Shown: positions 1-20,866, numbered from the stretch's first letter. The stretch is DNA of 24,000 bases from Terriglobia bacterium (GCA_963662495.2 CAXVYQ010000008.1:452903-476902); one strand, 5' to 3'. Notes: a model not told the origin generated them from the letters alone. Numbers and translations: made by a program.

Positions 1-1
1 G

Positions 2-1033
2 CGGCTGAGCCGGACGGTTCACAACGCCGCAGCCGCATGGAGCCAGACGCAGCAGGTGCTGGCGGATGAGACCCCGGACGATACATCTGATTCTCCTGCT
101 TCCCCTTTGGCCGGCAACTCCTCCGCCATGGTGGAGGTCTATCAGTTCATCGCGAAGGTGGCGGATTCCGATGCCACGGTGCTGCTGGAAGGGGAGACCG
201 GAACGGGCAAGGAGCTGGTCGCGGGCCTGATTCATCAGGCCGGTGCGCGGCGGGACCATCCCATGATTGTCGTGGACTGCGGCTCGCTTCCCGCCTCGCT
301 GCTGGAAGCGGAACTCTTCGGCGCGGTGCGCGGCGCATATACGGGCGCTGACCGGGACCGGCGCGGCTTGTTCGAGGCTGCCGACGGCGGCACGGTTTTT
401 CTGGATGAGATCGGAGAGATGGAGCTCTCCTTCCAGCAGCGTCTGCTGCGTTTTCTGCAGGAGCGCGAGATCCGTCCGCTGGGCTCCTCTGCGGCGCGCA
501 AGGTGGATGTGCGCGTCATCGCGGCCACGAACCGCGACCTGCGCCAGTTCGTCTCGGAGAAAAAGTTCCGCGAGGATCTCTGGTACCGGCTCCAGGTCGC
601 CACGCTTCGCCTCGCACCGCTGCGGGAGCGCAAGGAGGATATTCCCGTTCTGATCGGCCATTTCCTCGCCAGCCTGCGCGCCCGCTCCGGCCGTCAGGTG
701 CGCCTCAGCGACGCGGCACTCGCCGCCGCGCGGGAATACTCCTGGCCCGGCAACGTCCGCCAGTTGCAGAACCTGCTGGAACGGCTCGCGATTCTGCATC
801 CGGGCCCCGTTGTGGAGCAATCCACTTTGCTGGAAACCCTCGCGGCGCTCGACCCGGCCACCGCCAGCCCGGCCGGCCCGGCTGGCGGCTCGCTCTCCTC
901 GGTTGAGGAAGATCACATCCGGAAAGTCCTGGAAGCCACCCACGGAAACAAGAGCCGGGCAGCCGAAATTCTCGGAATTGAACGAAAAACGCTCTATCGC
1001 AAGCTCGAAAAGATGCAGGGTGAGTCATCCTGA
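2..1033 (+). CDS. sigma-54-dependent transcriptional activator (bacterial enhancer-binding protein), 5'-truncated by the window edge
   Basis: The frame is open from nt 2, so the N-terminal sensory domain lies off-window. The AAA+ core has Walker A GETGTGKE, a GAFTGA-type loop (RGAYTGA) and Walker B FLDEIGEM. The C-terminus carries a Fis-type HTH (SRAAEILGIERKTLYRKLEK). Stop at 1031-1033. Confidence 0.9.
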   Translation, partial: RLSRTVHNAAAAWSQTQQVLADETPDDTSDSPASPLAGNSSAMVEVYQFIAKVADSDATVLLEGETGTGKELVAGLIHQAGARRDHPMIVVDCGSLPASLLEAELFGAVRGAYTGADRDRRGLFEAADGGTVFLDEIGEMELSFQQRLLRFLQEREIRPLGSSAARKVDVRVIAATNRDLRQFVSEKKFREDLWYRLQVATLRLAPLRERKEDIPVLIGHFLASLRARSGRQVRLSDAALAAAREYSWPGNVRQLQNLLERLAILHPGPVVEQSTLLETLAALDPATASPAGPAGGSLSSVEEDHIRKVLEATHGNKSRAAEILGIERKTLYRKLEKMQGESS

Positions 1034-1132
1034 CACACCGTGTTTCCTTGCGCCACGATTGATTCCGATGATTCAGAGTCGGTGGAATCCACTTCAAATT
1101 TTTTTTCAACGGGTTATGAGCAAGAGATGGTT

Positions 1133-1148
1133 TGGCATGGCGGTTGCA
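1133..1148 (+). promoter_or_regulatory. sigma-54 (-24/-12) promoter candidate
   Basis: TGGCAT-GGCGG-TTGCA matches the TGGCAC-N5-TTGCW consensus with exact GG-to-GC spacing (GG 1134-1135, GC 1146-1147). It is intergenic, 100 nt downstream of the EBP stop. It is the only correctly spaced match I found on either strand of the window. Confidence 0.5.
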
Positions 1149-1157
1149 ATAAGTGAG

Positions 1158-1276
1158 AGTGGTTCAAGACAAACGATTGACTGGCCAAACAGCACCGCGG
1201 ATCGGGAGGGACGAAGGGCTGCTCTCCCTTAAAAATGCGGATCCCGATTTGAGGGGCTGTTTGGCCCATCTTTTTT
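1158..1276 (+). ncRNA. candidate sigma-54-dependent small RNA (about 120 nt), uncharacterised
   Basis: The start is inferred about 11-12 nt after the -12 GC. No plausible ORF is present. A perfect 11 bp stem, GGCCAAACAGC (1183-1193) with GCTGTTTGGCC (1256-1266), is followed by CATCTTTTTT (T6 at 1271-1276). Inner helices include GGGAG/CTCCC (1204-1208/1224-1228), or alternatively ATCGGGA/TCCCGAT (1201-1207/1242-1248). Confidence 0.3.
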
Positions 1277-1351
1277 CCCCTAAAACCTTCTTTTTCTTCT
1301 CACGCAAGATTCGATAGCTTGGAGAACTCCGATTTTCCCGATCCCGGTCAA

Positions 1352-2113
1352 CTATTCACGGAAGGAAAACCGCAGCCGCGTTTTCCTGATCTGGATGACA
1401 TCGCCTTCACCCAACCGCAGCGGAGCGGTCAGGACCTCGGAGTTCACGCGTATCTTCCCTCCTCGGCCACCCCGGCCCCCCTGGTCCGAGGGTGCAATTT
1501 CAAAGTGGCGTCCACGGCGGGTGATCAGCGCGGCAACACGAGGCAGGAACCAGCCTTTAAGTTGTACGGACGCGCCCTGATCTTTTCCGATGATGCAGAT
1601 TTTGCTGGTCAGAATGTACTCTTCCTGATTGGTCTTACCGGCCAGCCGCACCAGGCAGGCCACATTTCCAGCGGAGGATTCCGAAGACCCTTCCTCGGCG
1701 ATCGCCGTGGCCTTGGCAAGAAATTCGCGGCGCTTTTTGGTATCGAGCACGACCGTCTGATCGGCGGCCGCCACCCCTTCCGATGCACCCGAGCCACCAG
1801 CCATCAGCATGCTGGCAGGCATGCCGCCGTCCTCGTGAAAAACGACCGTGTGTTTCCCGATGACGATCTCATCGCCTTCCTTCAGCGCGCTTTTCCTGAT
1901 CCGCTGGTTGTTGAGGAAGGTTCCGTTCAGACTGTTGAGGTCTTCAATAAAGAAGCGTCCCTCTTCAACGATCACCTTGGCGTGATGGCTGGAAACAGCA
2001 AGGTTATCGATGACAATTTCATTGCGGGGCGCCCGGCCGAGACCAATACTGGCCTTCTGCACCGGCAGTTCCTTTATAATTTTGCCTTCATATTGCAGAA
2101 CTAGATTTGCCAT
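1352..2113 (-). CDS. FHA domain-containing protein (canonical N-terminal FHA plus degenerate C-terminal FHA-like domain)
   Basis: The N-terminal region GLGRAPRNEIVIDNLAVSSHHAKV...LNSLNGTFLNNQRI...GDEIVIGKHTVVF is a typical FHA domain. The C-terminal region IIGKDQGASVQL...IRVNSEVL...GDVIQIRKTRLRF is FHA-like. SD GGGAGG lies 9 nt upstream of ATG 2113. Confidence 0.85.
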   Translation of the reverse strand: MANLVLQYEGKIIKELPVQKASIGLGRAPRNEIVIDNLAVSSHHAKVIVEEGRFFIEDLNSLNGTFLNNQRIRKSALKEGDEIVIGKHTVVFHEDGGMPASMLMAGGSGASEGVAAADQTVVLDTKKRREFLAKATAIAEEGSSESSAGNVACLVRLAGKTNQEEYILTSKICIIGKDQGASVQLKGWFLPRVAALITRRGRHFEIAPSDQGGRGGRGGKIRVNSEVLTAPLRLGEGDVIQIRKTRLRFSFRE

Positions 2114-2927
2114 TTCCGATTACCTCCCTGAACATTCCGATCCAGCGTCGCCACCCGGAGACGGGCGCAGGAATCAGGCGCAGGACAATGACCGTGGTAT
2201 TGTCCTCACCGCCCCTTTCATTGGCGAGTTCCACGAGCCAGTCGGCAACCTGTTGCGGGGTGCCGGGCTGAGTGAGTACCTCCGCGATTTCCTTGTCTGT
2301 AACCATGTGGGTCAGTCCGTCGGAACACAACAGGATCTGGTCTCCGGCGCCAACCCAGAGTTCATCCATATCCACTTCCACATGGGACTCCACGCCGAGC
2401 GCCCGCAGGATCACGTTGGACAGCTCGGACCGTTCGGCCTCTTCTTGCGTCATCACGCCCTGGCGGACCTGTTCCATCACCAGGGAATGGTCCTGCGTGA
2501 GTTGCTGCGGCTGGCGTTCGCGGAACAGATAGATTCGGCTGTCGCCCACATGCGCCAGGCTCATGATGTTGTCGATGATGCGGACCGCGACAACGGTGGA
2601 GCCCATGCCGTTGAGCTCGGGACGGGTGATGGCCTCTTGATAGATGATCCGGCTGGAGAGCCGAATGCCGCTGGCCAGGCGGTTGGTCGGCGCGGTGAAT
2701 TCCTCGATCCGGTTTCCCACAAACGTCTGCCCGGAACTTCCGGCCAAATCGATGCAATGCGCGAGCACCGTTTCCACCGCCATCCGGCTGGCGATTTCCC
2801 CGCCGGCCTGCCCTCCCATCCCATCGCAGAGGACAAACAGGTTCAAAGGAAAATCCACGCCATAGTGGTCTTCATTGTTGGTTCGCACCAACCCCACATC
2901 CGTCCGTGATCCAACGTCTATCTGCAA
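2088..2927 (-). CDS. PP2C-family Ser/Thr protein phosphatase
   Basis: PP2C motifs are present: TDVGLVRTNNEDHY, LCDGMGGQAGGEIAS, VGDSRIY, LLCSDGL and GGEDNTTVIV. The start is TTG 2927 with GGAGG 6 nt upstream. The 3' end overlaps the FHA gene by 26 nt. Confidence 0.9.
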   Translation of the reverse strand: MQIDVGSRTDVGLVRTNNEDHYGVDFPLNLFVLCDGMGGQAGGEIASRMAVETVLAHCIDLAGSSGQTFVGNRIEEFTAPTNRLASGIRLSSRIIYQEAITRPELNGMGSTVVAVRIIDNIMSLAHVGDSRIYLFRERQPQQLTQDHSLVMEQVRQGVMTQEEAERSELSNVILRALGVESHVEVDMDELWVGAGDQILLCSDGLTHMVTDKEIAEVLTQPGTPQQVADWLVELANERGGEDNTTVIVLRLIPAPVSGWRRWIGMFREVIGNGKSSSAI

Positions 2928-3427
2928 ACCGAGCCTCCATCGGCTCCCCGTTCAAACCCGGGCGCAACAACCCCGCGATTCCCGGAAACCGATTCTTTCC
3001 ACCGCACCGTGACACGACCTTGCCCCGCATGGCGAGCCACACCCATGGACCTATCTTCCATGCAAGCAGGCAAGCAAGCGCCGGGTCAGGATATTTCCCC
3101 TTAAATCAACTGTCTTTTCTGCAACACATGCCAACATTTTACAGGCATTCCCCTGGTCCTGGATGGTGTGCAGTGTTGTACATTCCTCATTCAGGACTCA
3201 GATCGGCCTCAGTCCCACCCGGGTCAGACCCGGTCGACCCGTCTCGGGATAACACGCCGAAATCGGGTCCCAGAGAGTTTCATCGGCTGGAGGACGCCAT
3301 CCGATAAGCATTGATTCCGGCTATTCGGGAGTCATCCATCTTGCTTCAGAATTCGATCTCAACCCGCGAGAAGGACCGGCGGGCAGGGATCACAAGAAAA
3401 TAACCCTTTGATTAGCAACAGCATATA

Positions 3428-3456
3428 TTGGTACGCTTGGTCCCATTTGGTATGCT
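3428..3456 (+). promoter_or_regulatory. sigma-70-like promoter candidate for the ABC operon
   Basis: TTGGTA-N17-TATGCT (-35 at 3428-3433, -10 at 3451-3456). It overlaps an 11-mer direct repeat, TTGGTAYGCTT, at 3428-3438 and 3447-3457. This would give a leader of about 160 nt. Confidence 0.3.
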
Positions 3457-3625
3457 TATCCTATGAACCTGCTGGGATAACGGCAGGCTCACTCACCACA
3501 CCCGGAGGCGTGGGCATCTTGTCGTTCAGGGCCAGAGGGGGGCGGTCCGGCGCAGGTGGTGAGTAACAGGGTTCGAAAATGACCTCATTCAAAATCTTTC
3601 AGCGAGCTTCGTGCAGGAGGAAGCA

Positions 3626-4651
3626 GTGATCGAAGTGCAAGGACTGACCAAGCGGTATGGGAAGACCGTTGCGGTGAATGACCTCAGCTTTTCAGTGGAA
3701 AAAGGCGAGGTCCTGGGCTTTCTGGGACCGAACGGCGCCGGGAAGACCACGACGATGCGCGTGCTGACCGGATACCTGCCGCCGACGACGGGGAAGGTCC
3801 GGGTGGCCGGCTACGATGTGATGGAGTCTCCGCTGGAGGTCAAGAAGCGGGTTGGGTATCTTCCGGAGACGCCGCCGCTTTACACCGACATGCGGGTGCA
3901 CGAAATGCTCGACTTTGCCGCCCGCATCAAAGGTGTCCCGGCCCGCCAGATCAAGACGCGGCGGGAGTACGTTGCTGAGAAAACGGCGATCACCGACGTG
4001 CTGAACAAGATCGTCGGGCATCTGTCGAAAGGCTACCGGCAACGGGTGGGACTGGCGGCCGCGCTGATTCACGATCCGGAACTGCTCGTTCTGGACGAGC
4101 CGACGGCGGGGCTGGACCCGAAACAGATTATCGAAACCCGGAAACTCATCCAGAGCCTGTCACGCGACCATACGATCATCCTGAGCACGCATATCCTGCC
4201 GGAGGCGGCCAACACCTGCAACCGGGTGATGATTATCAACGCCGGACATCTGGTCGCCGAGGATACGCCGGAGAACCTGACTCACCGGCTGCAGGGCTTT
4301 GAAACCATGCGACTGGTGGTGGAAGGGCCCCAGGAACCGGTGCGCGAGGCGCTGGCCGGGGTGGAGGGGGTCCACGAGGTCTCCCCGATTCCGATGCCCG
4401 GTGGCCGGGTGGAATTCTCCGTGCAGATGGCGCCAGAGCAGGACCGGCGAAAAGAACTGGCGCGCAAGGTAGTGGAAGGCGGCTGGGGATTGCTGGAGCT
4501 GCGGCCGACGGGCATGAGTCTGGAGGATATCTTCCTGAAGCTCACGACGAAGGATACGGCGGAGAGCGAACAGGCTCAACAGGCCGCGGCTGCCCCGGAG
4601 ACTCCGGAGGGAGGCGAGCCCGAAACGGCCGAGGAGGTAACAGAAGCATGA
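3626..4651 (+). CDS. ABC transporter ATP-binding protein (GldA-like, ABC-2 subfamily)
   Basis: Walker A GPNGAGKTT, signature LSKGYRQR, Walker B LLVLDEPTAGLD and an H-loop STH are present. I prefer the GTG 3626 start (AGGAGG at 3615-3620, 5 nt spacer) over GTG 3611 from the track. The C-terminal tail is rich in Ala, Pro and Glu. Confidence 0.9.
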   Translation: MIEVQGLTKRYGKTVAVNDLSFSVEKGEVLGFLGPNGAGKTTTMRVLTGYLPPTTGKVRVAGYDVMESPLEVKKRVGYLPETPPLYTDMRVHEMLDFAARIKGVPARQIKTRREYVAEKTAITDVLNKIVGHLSKGYRQRVGLAAALIHDPELLVLDEPTAGLDPKQIIETRKLIQSLSRDHTIILSTHILPEAANTCNRVMIINAGHLVAEDTPENLTHRLQGFETMRLVVEGPQEPVREALAGVEGVHEVSPIPMPGGRVEFSVQMAPEQDRRKELARKVVEGGWGLLELRPTGMSLEDIFLKLTTKDTAESEQAQQAAAAPETPEGGEPETAEEVTEA

Positions 4652-8473: not shown

Positions 8474-8836
8474 GTGGCGGGATTGACCGGCGTCCTGCTG
8501 CGTTACTGGCTATCGGGCTGGGTCGATCACTGGATGCATCAGCGGTTTGGTGGAACCTTCCCGCTGGGGACGCTGCTGGCGAATCTGGCCGGCTGCTTTG
8601 CGGCCGGGTTTCTGTTCCACTACCTGACGGAAAAGACCCTGCTGGACCCCCGGGTTCGCATCTCCATCCTGGTGGGACTGCTGGGAGGATTTACCACTTT
8701 TTCTTCCTACGCGGTTCAGACGCTCTCGCTGTTTCGTGACGGCGAAACCTCTTTGGCGCTGCTGAGCCTGACGGTCTCGAACGTGGGCGGGCTGGCGCTG
8801 GCCTGGGCCGGATACGAACTATCCCGCTCAATTTGA
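8474..8836 (+). CDS. crcB: fluoride ion channel CrcB/FluC
   Basis: The conserved GGFTTFSS motif is present in a small four-TM protein. The start is uncertain: CrcB-like sequence (VLYIGV) continues in frame upstream of GTG 8474 with no start codon (see findings). Confidence 0.85.
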   Translation: MAGLTGVLLRYWLSGWVDHWMHQRFGGTFPLGTLLANLAGCFAAGFLFHYLTEKTLLDPRVRISILVGLLGGFTTFSSYAVQTLSLFRDGETSLALLSLTVSNVGGLALAWAGYELSRSI

Positions 8837-8844
8837 GGAATGCG

Positions 8845-9165
8845 ATGGATGAATCCACGGAAGGAACTCTGCTCCGCATCTATGTGGGGGAAAATGACCG
8901 GGCCGGAAAACTTCCTTTACACGAGGCCCTGGTGCTGAAGGCGCGGGAGGCCGGACTGGCCGGAGCGACGATGCTGCGCGGCGTGGTGGGCTACGGCAGG
9001 GGAAGCGTGGTGCATACGGCGAAGATCTTCTCGCTGTCGGAAGAACTGCCCATGGTGGTGGAGATCGTGGATCGGACCGAGAAGGTGGAGCGGTTCCTCC
9101 CTGTTCTGAAGCAGACAGCTCCCTCCGCGCTGACCACGCTCGAAAAAGTCCGCATACTGAGCTGA
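8845..9165 (+). CDS. DUF190 domain protein (crcB-associated, PII-like)
   Basis: LLRIYVGENDR...PLHEALVLKAREAGLAGATMLRG..GYG is typical of DUF190, which commonly follows crcB. ATG 8845 is preferred (GAGGA at 8836-8840) over TTG 8833. Confidence 0.8.
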   Translation: MDESTEGTLLRIYVGENDRAGKLPLHEALVLKAREAGLAGATMLRGVVGYGRGSVVHTAKIFSLSEELPMVVEIVDRTEKVERFLPVLKQTAPSALTTLEKVRILS

Positions 9166-9350
9166 CGCGGCTGGCACGCTTGACGAACCCCTTCTCGGAA
9201 AAATGGTCGAATCTGAAAGCAGCCCTGGCACTTTACTTCGCGTGGTACAACTTCTGCCGGGTGCATCGGTCCATCCGGATGACACCTGCGATGGAGGCGG
9301 GAGTTTCAGATAGGAAATGGACTCTTGGTGATCTATTGGATGTTATTTAA
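9162..9350 (+). pseudogene. 3' remnant of a DDE transposase gene (IS1/IS1595-like C-terminal tail)
   Basis: The translation is LTRLARLTNPFSEKWSNLKAALALYFAWYNFCRVHRSIRMTPAMEAGVSDRKWTLGDLLDVI*. The RLTN.FS.K...YNF.R.H..L..TPAM..G motif is the conserved C-terminus of such transposases. There is no start codon or catalytic region, and the fragment abuts the DUF190 stop. Confidence 0.6.
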
Positions 9351-9366
9351 ACTTTACTAAAGTTTA
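9348..9366. promoter_or_regulatory. perfect 9 bp inverted repeat TAAACTTTA-c-TAAAGTTTA
   Basis: Read directly from the sequence. It is AT-rich, centred on 9357, and lies 42 nt upstream of the ATPase start codon. Confidence 0.4.
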
Positions 9367-9375
9367 TTGCCCTAA

Positions 9376-9395
9376 GAGATAAACTGAGATAAACT
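9376..9395. repeat. perfect tandem 10-mer (GAGATAAACT x2)
   Basis: Read directly from the sequence. It shares the TAAACT core with the adjacent palindrome and ends 12 nt before ATG 9408. Confidence 0.6.
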
Positions 9396-9407
9396 CGATA
9401 TATCTTT

Positions 9408-10583
9408 ATGGACCCACGCACAAATCCTTTCGCTCCGGGTGCTGGATCGCAACCCCCTGAACTGGCTGGGCGTGATGACATTCTGGAGAATGCGGACATC
9501 AAGCTGCACAGAATCCGGAACCAGAAACCGTCCAAAAGTCTGATATTAGTTGGGCTTAGGGGGGTCGGGAAGACCGTACTGCTAAACAGAGTTTTTGAAA
9601 AAGCCAGCCAAAGCGGCTATAAGGCTGTCCTGATCGAATCCACCGAAGACAAGGCACTCTCGGAGTTGCTTATTCCGCCATTGCGGCAAATCCTGTTTTC
9701 TCTGGATGCAATGGAAAACGCTAGTGATAAAGCAAAGCGTGGCCTGAGAGTTTTGGGAAGTTTCATCAAGGGTCTCAAGGCAAAAATTGGGGAATGGGAA
9801 TTCGGCTTTGCTACAGAACCAGGGACTGCGGATAGCGGAGACCTGGAAGCGGACCTCGGGGAACTTTTCGTTGCGCTGGGAGAGGCTGCCTTGGATCGCA
9901 AGACAGCAGTCGCGATCTGCGTGGATGAGCTTCAGTATCTGAATGAACAGGAAATGAGTGCCCTGATCATGGCAATCCATAAGATTAGCCAGCGAAATTT
10001 GCCGGTTATTTTGGTTGCAGCAGGATTGCCTCAAATACTTGGCCTCTGCGGAAAATCAAAATCTTATGCCGAGCGGCTTTTCGATTACCCGACTGTGGGC
10101 CCACTGTCTAGACCAGATGGGGAGCGTGCTTTACAAAACCCTGTTCGCGCTCATGATGTTGAATTTGAAAATAACGCAATAGCAGCAGTCTTGGCGGAAA
10201 CGCAGGGCTATCCGTATTTCATTCAACAATGGGGGCATGAGTCCTGGAATATTGCGAAAGATTCTCCGATTGGACTGGAAGATGTCCGAAAGGCAAGCAC
10301 GCTTGCAATTGGGAATCTGGATAGGAGTTTTTTCCGCGTTAGATTTGACCGTCTCACGCCCCGTGAGCGGGACTATCTTAATGCGCTAGCTAACCTCGGC
10401 TCTGGCAATCAGCGTTCTGGGGATATTGCTGCTGAACTTGGAGTCAAGCAACAATCCGTTGCTCCGATCCGTTCTTCTCTTATCAAGAAAGGGATGATTT
10501 ATAGTCCAGAATATGGCGATACTGCTTTTACTGTTCCGCTTTTCGGCGCCTTTATGACAAGAACGATGCCAAAGCAATCCTAA
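9408..10583 (+). CDS. STAND/ORC-like AAA ATPase with C-terminal winged-helix domain (Arch_ATPase-like), function unknown
   Basis: The N-terminal NPFAPGAGSQPPELAGRD lead-in is followed by Walker A GLRGVGKT and Walker B ICVDELQYL. The C-terminus LTPRERDYLNAL...SGDIAAELGVKQQSVAPIRSSLIKKGMI is wHTH-like. G+C is visibly lower, about 45-53% in hand-counted 60 nt lines versus about 60% in the flanks. Confidence 0.75.
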   Translation: MDPRTNPFAPGAGSQPPELAGRDDILENADIKLHRIRNQKPSKSLILVGLRGVGKTVLLNRVFEKASQSGYKAVLIESTEDKALSELLIPPLRQILFSLDAMENASDKAKRGLRVLGSFIKGLKAKIGEWEFGFATEPGTADSGDLEADLGELFVALGEAALDRKTAVAICVDELQYLNEQEMSALIMAIHKISQRNLPVILVAAGLPQILGLCGKSKSYAERLFDYPTVGPLSRPDGERALQNPVRAHDVEFENNAIAAVLAETQGYPYFIQQWGHESWNIAKDSPIGLEDVRKASTLAIGNLDRSFFRVRFDRLTPRERDYLNALANLGSGNQRSGDIAAELGVKQQSVAPIRSSLIKKGMIYSPEYGDTAFTVPLFGAFMTRTMPKQS

Positions 10584-10702
10584 CCACCCAGCATCGCACA
10601 TTTCGGACACCACCAATTGCCACAACAGGCTACCGGAACCATTGCGGATGCGGGTAAAATGGGCCGTGGCCTCGCGCCACGAACAATCTCCTGAAAAGGA
10701 CA

Positions 10703-12118
10703 ATGACCTCGATGACGAACGGCAAGACATTATTCGACAAGATCTGGAACCGGCACGTGGTGGTGAATGAGCCGGAGTATCCCACCGTGCTCTATATCGA
10801 CCTGCACCTGATCCACGAAGTTACTTCTCCGCAGGCCTTTCAGTCGTTGCGCGAAAAGGGCCTCCAGGTGCGGCATCCCTCCCGCGTTGTCGCCACGATG
10901 GACCACAGCATTCCTACCAAGGACCGCTCGCTGCCCATCGCCGACCCGATGGCCGCCAACCAGATTCGCCAACTGGAGGAGAACTGCCGGCAGTTCGGGG
11001 TGCCGCTGTTCGGCATGAACAGCGATTTTCAGGGCATCGTACATGTCATCGGACCGGAGCTGGGACTGACGCAGCCGGGCATGACGATTGTCTGCGGCGA
11101 CAGCCACACCTCCACGCACGGCGCCTTCGGGGCTCTGGCGTTCGGCATCGGCACGACCGAGGTGGAGCACGTGCTGGCGACCCAGTGCCTGTTGCAGAGA
11201 AAACCGCAGACCTTTGAAGTTCGAGTCAACGGGGCGTTGCAACCCGGCGTTACGGCCAAGGACATCATCCTGGCTCTCATCGCGCGCAACGGCGTGGGCG
11301 GCGGCGTGGGCTGCGTCTTCGAGTTTACCGGCAGCGGAATTCAATCCCTTTCGATGGAAGAGCGGCTGACGATCTGCAACATGTCGATTGAGGGCGGTGC
11401 GAAAGCCGGCCTGATTGCTCCCGACGACACGACCATCGAATACATGGCCGGCAGGCCGTACGCGCCAAAGGACGCTGCCTGGGACGAGGCCGTGCGGTAC
11501 TGGAAGAGCCTGCCGAGCGAGCCGGACGCCCCGTTCGACAAATCCATCACCATGGAGGCGGGCGAGCTGGAGCCGATGGTTACCTACGGCACCAATCCCG
11601 GCATGGGGATTCCGGTAACGGGAGTGATCCCGCAGCCCGATTCCCTCTCCGATGCATCGTCGCGAAAAGCCCTGGAGCACTCGCTCGAATACATGGCCCT
11701 GGAGCCGGGAAAACCGTTGCTGGGCCATCCAGTGGATGTGGTCTTCATCGGCAGTTGCACGAACTCGCGCATCTCGGACCTCCGCGCGGCGGCGCAGATC
11801 CTGAAAGGGCGAAAAGTGAGTCCGAGCGCGCAGGTGCTGGTAGTTCCCGGATCGCAGCAGGTGAAGCGTCAGGCGCAGGAGGAAGGATTGCCCGAGATCT
11901 TCCGGGAGGCGGGCTGCGATTGGAGGGAGCCGGGTTGCAGCATGTGCCTGGCGATGAACGGCGACGAGCTGCGGCCGGGGCAGTACTGCGTCTCGACCAG
12001 CAACCGGAACTTCGAGGGACGCCAGGGCAAGGGCGGCAGGACGTTTCTGGCCAGCCCACTCACGGCGGCAGCCTCCGCGATTGCCGGAAAAATCGCCGAC
12101 GTCCGGACTTTGCTCTAA
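10703..12118 (+). CDS. leuC: 3-isopropylmalate dehydratase large subunit
   Basis: [10 protein letters not shown]......[32 protein letters not shown] and the Fe-S Cys ligands (GSCTNSR, GCSMCL) are present. The start could also be ATG 10712. Confidence 0.95.
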
Positions 12119-20311: not shown

Positions 20312-20866
20312 ATGGCAGCCGACAAAACCAACAAGAGGCGCCGCAGCGAGCGCGTCCCCGCCAGGCACCGTATGATGCTGATCGTCCAGGGACCCAGCGG
20401 CGCCGCCATCCTGAAGGAGATCGTCACCACTTCGGAGATATCCCGGCACGGCACCAATATCCGCGGCCGCCAGCCGCTTGAGGTCGGCTGGACCGGAAAC
20501 ATCATCCAACTCAGCTCCTGCCGGCAGGCCCCGATGCGGGTCGCTTGGCATGATCCTTCCGAATCCCAGGCCGGCTATTTCGATACCGGGATTGAAATAC
20601 TGACCCAGGAGGATTTCTGGGGAAGAAGTTTCGACGATTACCGGGGTTCCGCGGAACCGTCCGATGTCGTGATTGAAAACGCCGGGGTGGGATCGGCCGA
20701 GTTTCTCGAGCTCATCCGGCGGGCCGATGGCTCGCCGAAGGGACAGAAGCTCCTGGAAACTTTGTGGTGCGCTCTTGTCGAGCAACTGGAGGAACGCCGC
20801 GTCTTGAACCGCACGGAGATGATCCACAAGCTTCGCAGCCTGGGCGTTTCGCTTTCTTCCGATTAG
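20312..20866 (+). CDS. PilZ domain protein (putative c-di-GMP receptor)
   Basis: It has N-terminal RRSER (RxxxR) and EISRHG ((D/N)xSxxG-like) motifs at PilZ-type spacing. GC3 is high in this frame. Confidence 0.65.
   Translation: MAADKTNKRRRSERVPARHRMMLIVQGPSGAAILKEIVTTSEISRHGTNIRGRQPLEVGWTGNIIQLSSCRQAPMRVAWHDPSESQAGYFDTGIEILTQEDFWGRSFDDYRGSAEPSDVVIENAGVGSAEFLELIRRADGSPKGQKLLETLWCALVEQLEERRVLNRTEMIHKLRSLGVSLSSD

Follow-up and report, generated by a model that had tools for sequence, protein, structure and literature searches.

What a sigma-54 promoter drives when no protein gene lies in front of it is the question raised by a 24,000-nucleotide stretch of DNA from a Terriglobia bacterium (GCA_963662495.2, CAXVYQ010000008.1:452903-476902; hereafter the window, with positions counted from its first letter). 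The promoter motif lies in the gap between the gene of an NtrC-family sigma-54 activator, or enhancer-binding protein (EBP), and a convergent gene for an FHA-domain protein. The initial annotation had put this gap at 318 bp, in agreement with the ends of the two open reading frames (ORFs; EBP stop at 1033, FHA stop at 1352), and had proposed that the promoter fires into a structured, ORF-less element, a candidate EBP-controlled small RNA (sRNA). Conservation and covariation support an sRNA of this kind beside the EBP gene, and sequence features suggest that it is expressed and depends on the EBP. We conclude with high confidence that the gap holds a real and conserved small RNA gene with a sigma-54 promoter, linked to a two-component system. 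With less assurance, we lean towards the fuller reading of a gene in its own right that specifies a regulatory, non-coding RNA of ~118 nt, which would be the direct output of the upstream two-component system and would act by base-pairing in trans.

The evidence for such a gene comes from relatives. A first search, run on a genome collection with the partial EBP protein encoded in the window, returned among the matches listed paralogs from many phyla with at most 57% identity, none of them accompanied by the RNA element. A second search used the full-length EBP (459 aa long in L081, a 99%-identical strain) and yielded ~75 clusters at least 60% identical. DNA was compared for EBP orthologs 60-72% identical to the window protein, which gave 11 distinct loci: L082, L162, L163, L164, L165, L166 (=L167, L168), L169, L170, L172 (~L173), L174 and L171. 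The RNA element is present directly 3' of the orthologous EBP gene, on the same strand, in all 11 of these acidobacterial loci as well as in the same-species strain L081, and lies 127-228 nt beyond the EBP stop codon; L171 alone carries a diverged version. A covariance model, R1, built from ten sequences (effective sequence number 2.16), scored 75-108 bits in the orthologous loci and weakly, 22.8 bits, in L171. It had no match in 80 loci of EBP paralogs or in ~78 FHA/PP2C loci devoid of this EBP; the RNA element is linked to this EBP gene and not to FHA. The promoter, whose conservation in relatives had been named as a test, is preserved too: the GG of its -24 element and the GC of its -12 element, with the 10-nt spacing between them, are invariant in 11/11 loci, while the spacer sequence is variable.

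The helices, for which the same test had been named, are likewise conserved. In a MAFFT alignment made from sequence alone, without structure fitting, the consensus obtained by RNAalifold is one long three-tier hairpin behind an unpaired 5' tail, and 15 of its 22 pairs show compensatory changes; R1 matches all loci. Cells of the consensus pairs are paired in 93.2% of cases, compared to 71.9% after shuffling (a value as high as that observed occurred in 0/500 shuffles) and 30-50% with partners slid by 1-3 columns. The 15 pairs changed on both sides compare with 9.6 in shuffled and 4-7 in slid controls, and the covariation score of 0.655 with 0.243 and 0.09-0.18, respectively. Because G-U cells (29) exceed A-C cells (5), and because the U-run is confined to the + strand, which also carries the promoter, the RNA is assigned to the + strand. 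R1 matches window positions 1158-1272 with 96.7 bits on the + strand versus 23.4 bits on the minus strand. The features of the locus are the following:

1..1033, + strand: 3' part of the NtrC-family response-regulator/sigma-54 activator (EBP) gene, from Pfam domains and translation
1023..1036, no strand assigned: palindrome AGTCA-TCC-TGACAC (AGTCATCCTGACAC), candidate upstream activator sequence, overlapping the EBP stop codon
1081..1107, + strand: weak hairpin GGTGGAATCCAC followed by TTCAAATTTTTTTT, from a scan for terminator-like sequences
1133..1148, + strand: sigma-54 promoter TGGCAT-GGCGG-TTGCA (TGGCATGGCGGTTGCA), with -24 GG at 1134-1135 and -12 GC at 1146-1147
1158..1276, + strand: predicted small RNA of ~118 nt, from the putative start A1158/G1159 to the end of the U-run
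1158..1180, + strand: conserved single-stranded 5' segment AGUGGUUCAAGACAAACGAUUGA, proposed seed, from alignment columns and unpaired probability
1183..1193, + strand: 5' strand of P1, the outer (terminator) stem, GGCCAAACAGC, pairing with 1256-1266
1198..1207, + strand: 5' strand of P2, CGGAUCGGGA, pairing with 1242-1251 in the minimum-energy fold
1214..1230, + strand: P3 apical hairpin AAGGG-CUGCUCU-CCCUU, its C/U-rich loop and 3' strand (GCUCUCCCU) conserved, from fold and alignment
1235..1241, + strand: internal-loop motif AUGCGGA, invariant columns in the 10-sequence alignment
1242..1251, + strand: 3' strand of P2, pairing with 1198-1207, from fold and covariation
1256..1266, + strand: 3' strand of P1, GCTGTTTGGCC, pairing with 1183-1193
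1271..1276, + strand: U-run of the intrinsic terminator, T6 after CATC, from the same type of scan

The promoter reads as first described, TGGCAT-N5-TTGCA at 1133-1148 with exact -24/-12 spacing: GG and GC are 12 nt apart from start to start, with 10 nt between them, and 10 of 11 positions agree with the sigma-54 consensus (TGGCAC-N5-TTGCW-like). Across the homologs it varies as TGGCAT...TTGCA, TGGCCC...TTGCT, TGGCGG...TTGCT, TGGCAC...TTGCA, TGGTCT...TTGCT and TGGTTA...TTGCA, and from the -12 GC to a conserved GTTCA downstream the distance is constant at 14-15 nt. Based on the spacing from the -12 element, transcription would start at ~1158/1159.

For the 120-nt stretch the folding energy is -46.9 kcal/mol (z = -2.96 versus shuffles). 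Its 5' 22 nt, nearly invariant in the family as nGUGGUUCAARACARACGAUUG (window version GGUUCAAGACAAACGAUUG), hold most of the invariant or near-invariant alignment columns and have a mean unpaired probability of 0.54-0.75 versus 0.35-0.44 for the whole RNA. The perfect 11 bp helix of the initial annotation, 1183-1193 with 1256-1266, is found in both sequence and fold and corresponds to P1, which spans 10-14 bp across the family and retains pairing in loci where its sequence is wholly different. P2 occurs in compensatory versions, GAUCGGG/CCCGAUC versus CUGCCGGG/CCCGGCAG versus GCCAGG/CCUGGC. P3 is a short apical stem whose loop has an unpaired probability of 0.54-0.83; for AUGCGGA the value is 0.59-0.91. 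Two conserved motifs thus fall on predicted unpaired positions, AUGCGGA in the internal loop and GCUCUCCC in the apical loop, and, in the predicted fold, the conserved sequence blocks of the RNA coincide with unpaired regions. The terminator-like end noted earlier on the + strand holds as well: T6 at 1271-1276 lies behind the stem, and a T-run follows P1 in every homolog, interrupted in L172 (TTTCTTTT). Two further proposals concerning the fold did not survive the comparison. The GCGGATC direct repeat exists in the window (1197-1203 and 1237-1243) but is not conserved as a repeat, and we rejected it as a functional feature, its 5' copy being a P2 strand and its 3' copy the AUGCGGA loop plus P2. 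The inner helices described as mutually exclusive are specific to the window: the alternative GGGAG/CUCCC pairing is missing from the homologs and was discarded as functional.

A candidate activator site lies upstream. Counted from the -24 GG, the palindrome at 1023-1036 starts 111 bp upstream and its TGACAC half-site lies at 103 bp, both within the ~80-200 bp expected of an EBP site; it is unique in the window, the two reported matches being the two strands of one palindrome. In seven loci WGTCA-N3-TGACAC starts 108-111 bp upstream of the -24 GG, and in 9/11 the TGACAC half-site precedes this GG by 100-103 bp, a spacing kept though the distance to the EBP stop codon ranges from 0 to ~100 nt. 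A degenerate pattern, WGTCRNNNYGACW, is found in 12/15 loci carrying the RNA versus 4/159 loci without it. The conserved palindrome is likely to be the activator site bound by the EBP. Three GATTC/GAATC half-sites for which this role had been suggested are present at 1061, 1070 and 1085, but they were ruled out, being peculiar to this window and without conservation among the loci. The T8 tract, also pointed out before, is found at 1100-1107, within the hairpin/T tract at 1081-1107, the sequence of which is not conserved in relatives; this segment may be the terminator of the EBP gene and/or an A/T tract that helps to bend DNA between activator site and promoter. Exact matches to the IHF consensus occur between palindrome and promoter in 4/11 loci; in the window that interval has the T8 tract only and no exact match, and an IHF site there is a possibility.

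As to what the transcript might encode, an ORF listing and sequence inspection found no conserved ORF across the homologs, and indels between them are not multiples of three, so the element is ORF-less, as had been stated. A transcript encoding a small protein could be suspected from a conserved ATG within AUGCGGA and from mechanical ORFs that overlap the region (1153-1317, 54 aa). From this ATG, however, the window reads MRIPI-stop and L082 an unrelated 60-aa ORF, a Shine-Dalgarno sequence is lacking, and the hairpin encloses the ATG; with the indels, this leaves a coding role next to no probability. A comparison with Rfam 15 gave 0 matches for the window when the gathering score was required, and between 900 and 1500, at E-values up to 10, a single match, an obvious chance hit to a snoRNA, in agreement with the initial annotation, which recognised no described RNA family.

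The gene preceding the RNA encodes a response regulator of the NtrC family. The ORF ending at 1033 contains Sigma54_activat, AAA_lid_14 and HTH_8 domains (Pfam search), and in the translated EBP one finds the receiver Asp (SDIYL), Walker A (GETGTGKE) and Walker B motifs, the GAYTGA loop and a Fis-type helix-turn-helix (HTH). The FHA protein of the window had no exact record; a 99%-identical protein, P0001, led to strain L081, where a 1.67-Mb ENA contig gives the order 233-aa gene, CHASE2-HisKA sensor kinase gene, gene of the 459-aa EBP 3' of it, gap, and convergent FHA and PP2C genes. Neither EBP nor kinase reached an equivalog cut-off in the NCBIfam search. The EBP would be the activator of the adjoining small RNA.

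All neighbours other than the EBP gene vary between loci. In the window the FHA-domain ORF (1352-2113, minus strand) is convergent to the EBP gene and followed by a PP2C phosphatase gene; downstream of the RNA, L163, L164 and the P0135 contig have a gene for a ~117-aa protein plus FHA and PP2C, L162 and L082 a toxin-antitoxin island, and other loci CoaE (L166, L174), a TonB-dependent receptor (L169), a P-type ATPase (L172) or a BNR protein (L171). Full-length orthologs of the FHA protein are numerous and carry names of Acidobacteria or Terriglobia, and a metagenome scan anchored on this protein collected 80 PP2C-FHA loci. Because the EBP adjoins FHA in only one of them, L082, the FHA gene is regarded as an incidental neighbour. 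The same variability bears on the idea of a cis-acting leader or attenuator, with the element controlling read-through into a downstream gene. A gene on the same strand does follow within 30-300 nt in some loci, namely CoaE in L166/L174, the P-type ATPase in L172 and the BNR protein in L171. Yet the downstream genes are unrelated between loci and are convergent in the window, L163, L164 and L169, so that the RNA is not the leader of a conserved downstream gene; in addition, no helix is more stable or better supported than the terminator stem, and a conserved anti-terminator alternative is lacking. A leader is accordingly a very improbable explanation.

If the element is an independent RNA gene under the control of the two-component system, it could work as follows. 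The CHASE2 sensor kinase would phosphorylate the NtrC-type response regulator, which would bind the palindrome AGTCA-N3-TGACAC ~130 bp upstream of the start site. Contact by DNA looping with the sigma-54 RNA polymerase at TGGCAT-N5-TTGCA would then drive open-complex formation, and transcription would run from ~1158/1159 to the long hairpin and U-run (1183-1276). The RNA would act in trans, its unstructured 5' segment of ~20 nt, GGUUCAAGACAAACGAUUG, pairing with target mRNAs, and the terminator hairpin and U-tail would provide stability as well as a likely handle for a chaperone. Base-pairing is suggested by the architecture, which is that of an sRNA: own promoter, Rho-independent terminator, a length within 50-300 nt, no ORF and a conserved accessible seed region.

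Several observations weigh against this reading. With up to one mismatch, the promoter motif has 1 match in the 24 kb against 0.81 expected (with up to two, 7 against 10.6 expected), and the promoters of L169/L172 are weaker (TGGGCA...GTGCT). The minus strand of the 120-nt stretch folds about equally well (z = -3.24). The palindrome is shifted by ~35 bp in L164 and was not found upstream of the promoter in L171. The homolog set is small, 10-11 loci with the close pairs L082/L162 and L169/L172 and an effective number of 2.16. On the side of function, a pure 5'-seed model leaves the loop motifs AUGCGGA and GCUCUCCC without a role, and a duplex-energy scan for targets in the flanks (3-24 kb per genome) found no recurrent site; its only outlier was the RNA's own antisense strand, and a 10-12 nt match at window position 20801 is within chance (~0.7 expected by our own estimate).

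The first two groups of these observations concern the existence of the gene. Taken alone, the promoter motif is possibly a chance occurrence, and this, together with the good fold of the minus strand, is what could be said for there being no RNA gene at all, with hairpin and T-run serving as the terminator of the EBP gene or as an insulator between convergent genes and the sigma-54 motif arising by chance. Motif and fold are indeed insufficient by themselves, and the feature rises above chance because it is conserved in relatives. GG-N10-GC is kept in 11/11 loci at a fixed spacing from the conserved 5' block, the palindrome of the activator site is conserved as well, conservation extends to ~40 positions in loops and 5' tail that a terminator would not need, and in the window a separate weak terminator-like hairpin lies nearer the EBP stop codon. 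We consider a mere terminator extremely unlikely.

The last observations concern the mode of action. The RNA could be real and sigma-54-driven and yet bind or sequester a protein through the loops AUGCGGA and GCUCUCCC instead of pairing with mRNAs. That two invariant motifs remain unpaired in an otherwise freely covarying hairpin suggests sequence-specific recognition, AUGCGGA includes a GGA core, and the duplex scan gave no convincing mRNA target. RNAs that titrate proteins are well known: CrcZ titrates Hfq/Crc, and CsrB/RsmZ titrate CsrA. However, known sponge RNAs carry several copies of their motif and this RNA one of each, the 5' tail is the most conserved and most accessible block, as in seed-type sRNAs, and ~118 nt is a typical length for base-pairing sRNAs. 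Sequestration of a protein is thus unlikely, and pairing through the 5' segment is the mode that we favour.

A bolder proposal, which we regard as doubtful, is that the CHASE2/NtrC pair is a single-output module targeting only this RNA and, in addition, that the 3' half of the RNA gene is an insertion hotspot for toxin-antitoxin cassettes that are small and mobile. If true, a whole environmental response in uncultured soil and sediment Acidobacteriota would run post-transcriptionally. tRNA and tmRNA genes serve as insertion sites for mobile elements, and a hotspot would explain both the 155-bp target duplication of L082 and the toxin-antitoxin island of L162. Directly after the RNA, L082 (3333-4556, minus strand with respect to the locus) has genes for a Gp49/HigB-like toxin (3949-4323) and an HTH antitoxin (3581-3952), which are flanked by a direct duplication of ~155 bp (3333-3487 and 4400-4556), with three repeat segments 76-92% identical. 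The duplication starts within the 3' half of the RNA and ends at the CCCCACACGTGC...GCACGTGTGGGG hairpin; no integrase was seen at this island, which has the look of an insertion by which the RNA gene's 3' end became duplicated, by analogy with islands at tRNA genes. In L162 (4835-6929) FHA/PP2C give way, directly after the RNA, to a ParE-toxin pair, a gene for GrpB and additional HTH genes, a second case of toxin-antitoxin-type cargo by the RNA 3' end; upstream of the kinase there is a HigB-like pair as well.

Other observations concern the neighbouring genes. Between RNA and FHA, a gene for an exported-looking protein of ~117-124 aa is present in L163 (4645-4998), L164 (4813-5172) and L082 (2951-3325). 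It is convergent with the RNA, its product ends in KKAExIEKLAEKIKNRxKNL, and it is missing from window positions 1277-1351. The protein matched no Pfam family, apart from a sub-threshold Metal_resist (ZraP/Spy-like) match in L164 only. A sigma-54 promoter driving this ~117-aa neighbour in relatives was considered and dropped, none having been found upstream. The genes for PP2C and the ~245-aa FHA protein form a tightly linked, overlapping pair (window 1352-2927, minus strand; L083-L161), detected together in ~67/81 acidobacterial loci; the C-terminal ~150 aa of the FHA protein are well conserved, yet without a Pfam domain. Exactly across from the FHA gene, the + strand has a 261-aa ORF (1319-2104), which most probably is the shadow ORF of a GC-rich gene rather than a target of the sigma-54 promoter. 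Farther along the window, a CrcB fluoride-channel gene lies beside a DUF190 gene (8474-9165, + strand), and no fluoride riboswitch was found in the whole window at Rfam gathering score despite the CrcB gene. At 9001-11000, G+C content is 0.51-0.53 versus ~0.60 elsewhere; the dip spans an AAA_16/AAA_22 ATPase gene (9408-10583), and the stretch may be acquired DNA.

Paralogous EBP genes offer a contrast. In L002, L009, L022, L051 and L079, which come from several phyla, a strong sigma-54 promoter lies 0-500 nt after the EBP gene and precedes a ribosome-binding site and a prepilin-like gene (N-terminus KGFTLIELLIV), an arrangement that is the protein-coding counterpart of the window layout. The paralog promoters lead to ORFs, often pilins, whereas the window promoter leads to a terminator without an ORF. 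When the myxobacterial and other paralog loci were scanned with Rfam for Pxr-like RNAs, only tRNAs were found.

Finally, we compared the locus with known systems. The initial annotation had described an EBP gene beside its own sigma-54-dependent sRNA as a known arrangement, for which crcZ, pxr, Dv_sRNA2 and glmY are precedents. CrcZ of Pseudomonas is an RNA of ~400 nt with several A-rich CA motifs (AANAANAA) that acts as an Hfq/Crc sponge. Its gene lies immediately downstream of cbrB and has an RpoN-dependent promoter activated by CbrB (PMC10562864). The CrcZ/CbrAB system shares with the window the order of sensor kinase, NtrC-family regulator and sRNA with RpoN promoter. The window RNA differs in being ~118 nt long with a single hairpin, sequence inspection found no AANAANAA motif in it, and the sensor domain of the associated kinase is different, a CHASE2 domain. 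In Myxococcus xanthus, pxr (108 nt) is located downstream of nla19 and has its own sigma-54 promoter, with an enhancer partly within the 3' end of the regulator gene; Pxr takes up a fold of three stem-loops, SL1 to SL3, of which SL1 and SL2 are conserved (PMC5568312). The position directly after a sigma-54 regulator gene and the own sigma-54 promoter make Pxr/nla19 similar in layout, by analogy and not by homology: instead of three stem-loops, the window RNA has an unstructured 5' tail and one long three-tier hairpin, and no shared RNA element was found in the myxobacterial loci of related EBPs.

The glmY gene lies upstream of its two-component genes, and GlmY works by protein mimicry (RapZ). 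Its sigma-54 promoter is served by GlrR bound to three TGTCN10GACA sites, with involvement of IHF (PMC3045617). The GlmY/GlrKR (QseE/QseF) system of Enterobacteriaceae thus also relies on an NtrC-type regulator and palindromic upstream sites of TGTC/GACA type, with three TGTCN10GACA copies as opposed to the one TGTCA-N3-TGACA palindrome of the window locus, and without sequence similarity. The Qrr RNAs of Vibrio are sigma-54/EBP-dependent, ~100 nt long and of the Hfq-type base-pairing class, with four stem-loops; qrr1 is next to luxO and divergent from it, and the Qrr RNAs are the main or sole output of their phosphorelay. Qrr/LuxO resembles the window in having a sigma-54/EBP-dependent sRNA of similar size next to the EBP gene. 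Rfam families include Qrr, and none matched the window RNA. In Desulfovibrio vulgaris, Dv_sRNA2 lies downstream of DVU0679, is a mapped binding target of that regulator, has a predicted sigma-54 promoter and retains this layout in relatives (PMC3333781). As an sRNA just after its own regulator gene, compared by layout only, it is similar to the window RNA, which belongs to another phylum.

Because its wiring is common to these systems but its sequence, size and fold differ, and because it has no Rfam match, the window RNA is a new RNA family in a known arrangement. Acidobacteriota are among the most abundant soil bacteria, and we found no paper linking Acidobacteria, sRNAs and sigma-54/RpoN. 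The locus provides a candidate RNA whose promoter type is defined, a candidate activator and binding site, and a structural model, all conserved in a clade known almost only from metagenomes; R1 could be used to annotate the family, and the RNA offers an entry point to what the CHASE2 system senses. The layout will not surprise specialists, but the locus gives a well-defined first handle on RNA regulation in a phylum that is important and poorly studied. It extends the design of sensor kinase, sigma-54 regulator and adjacent sRNA to another phylum, and the recurrence of this design there, as with CbrAB-CrcZ, Pxr, GlrKR-GlmY, LuxO-Qrr and DVU0679-sRNA2, supports the view of either repeated origin or ancient wiring.

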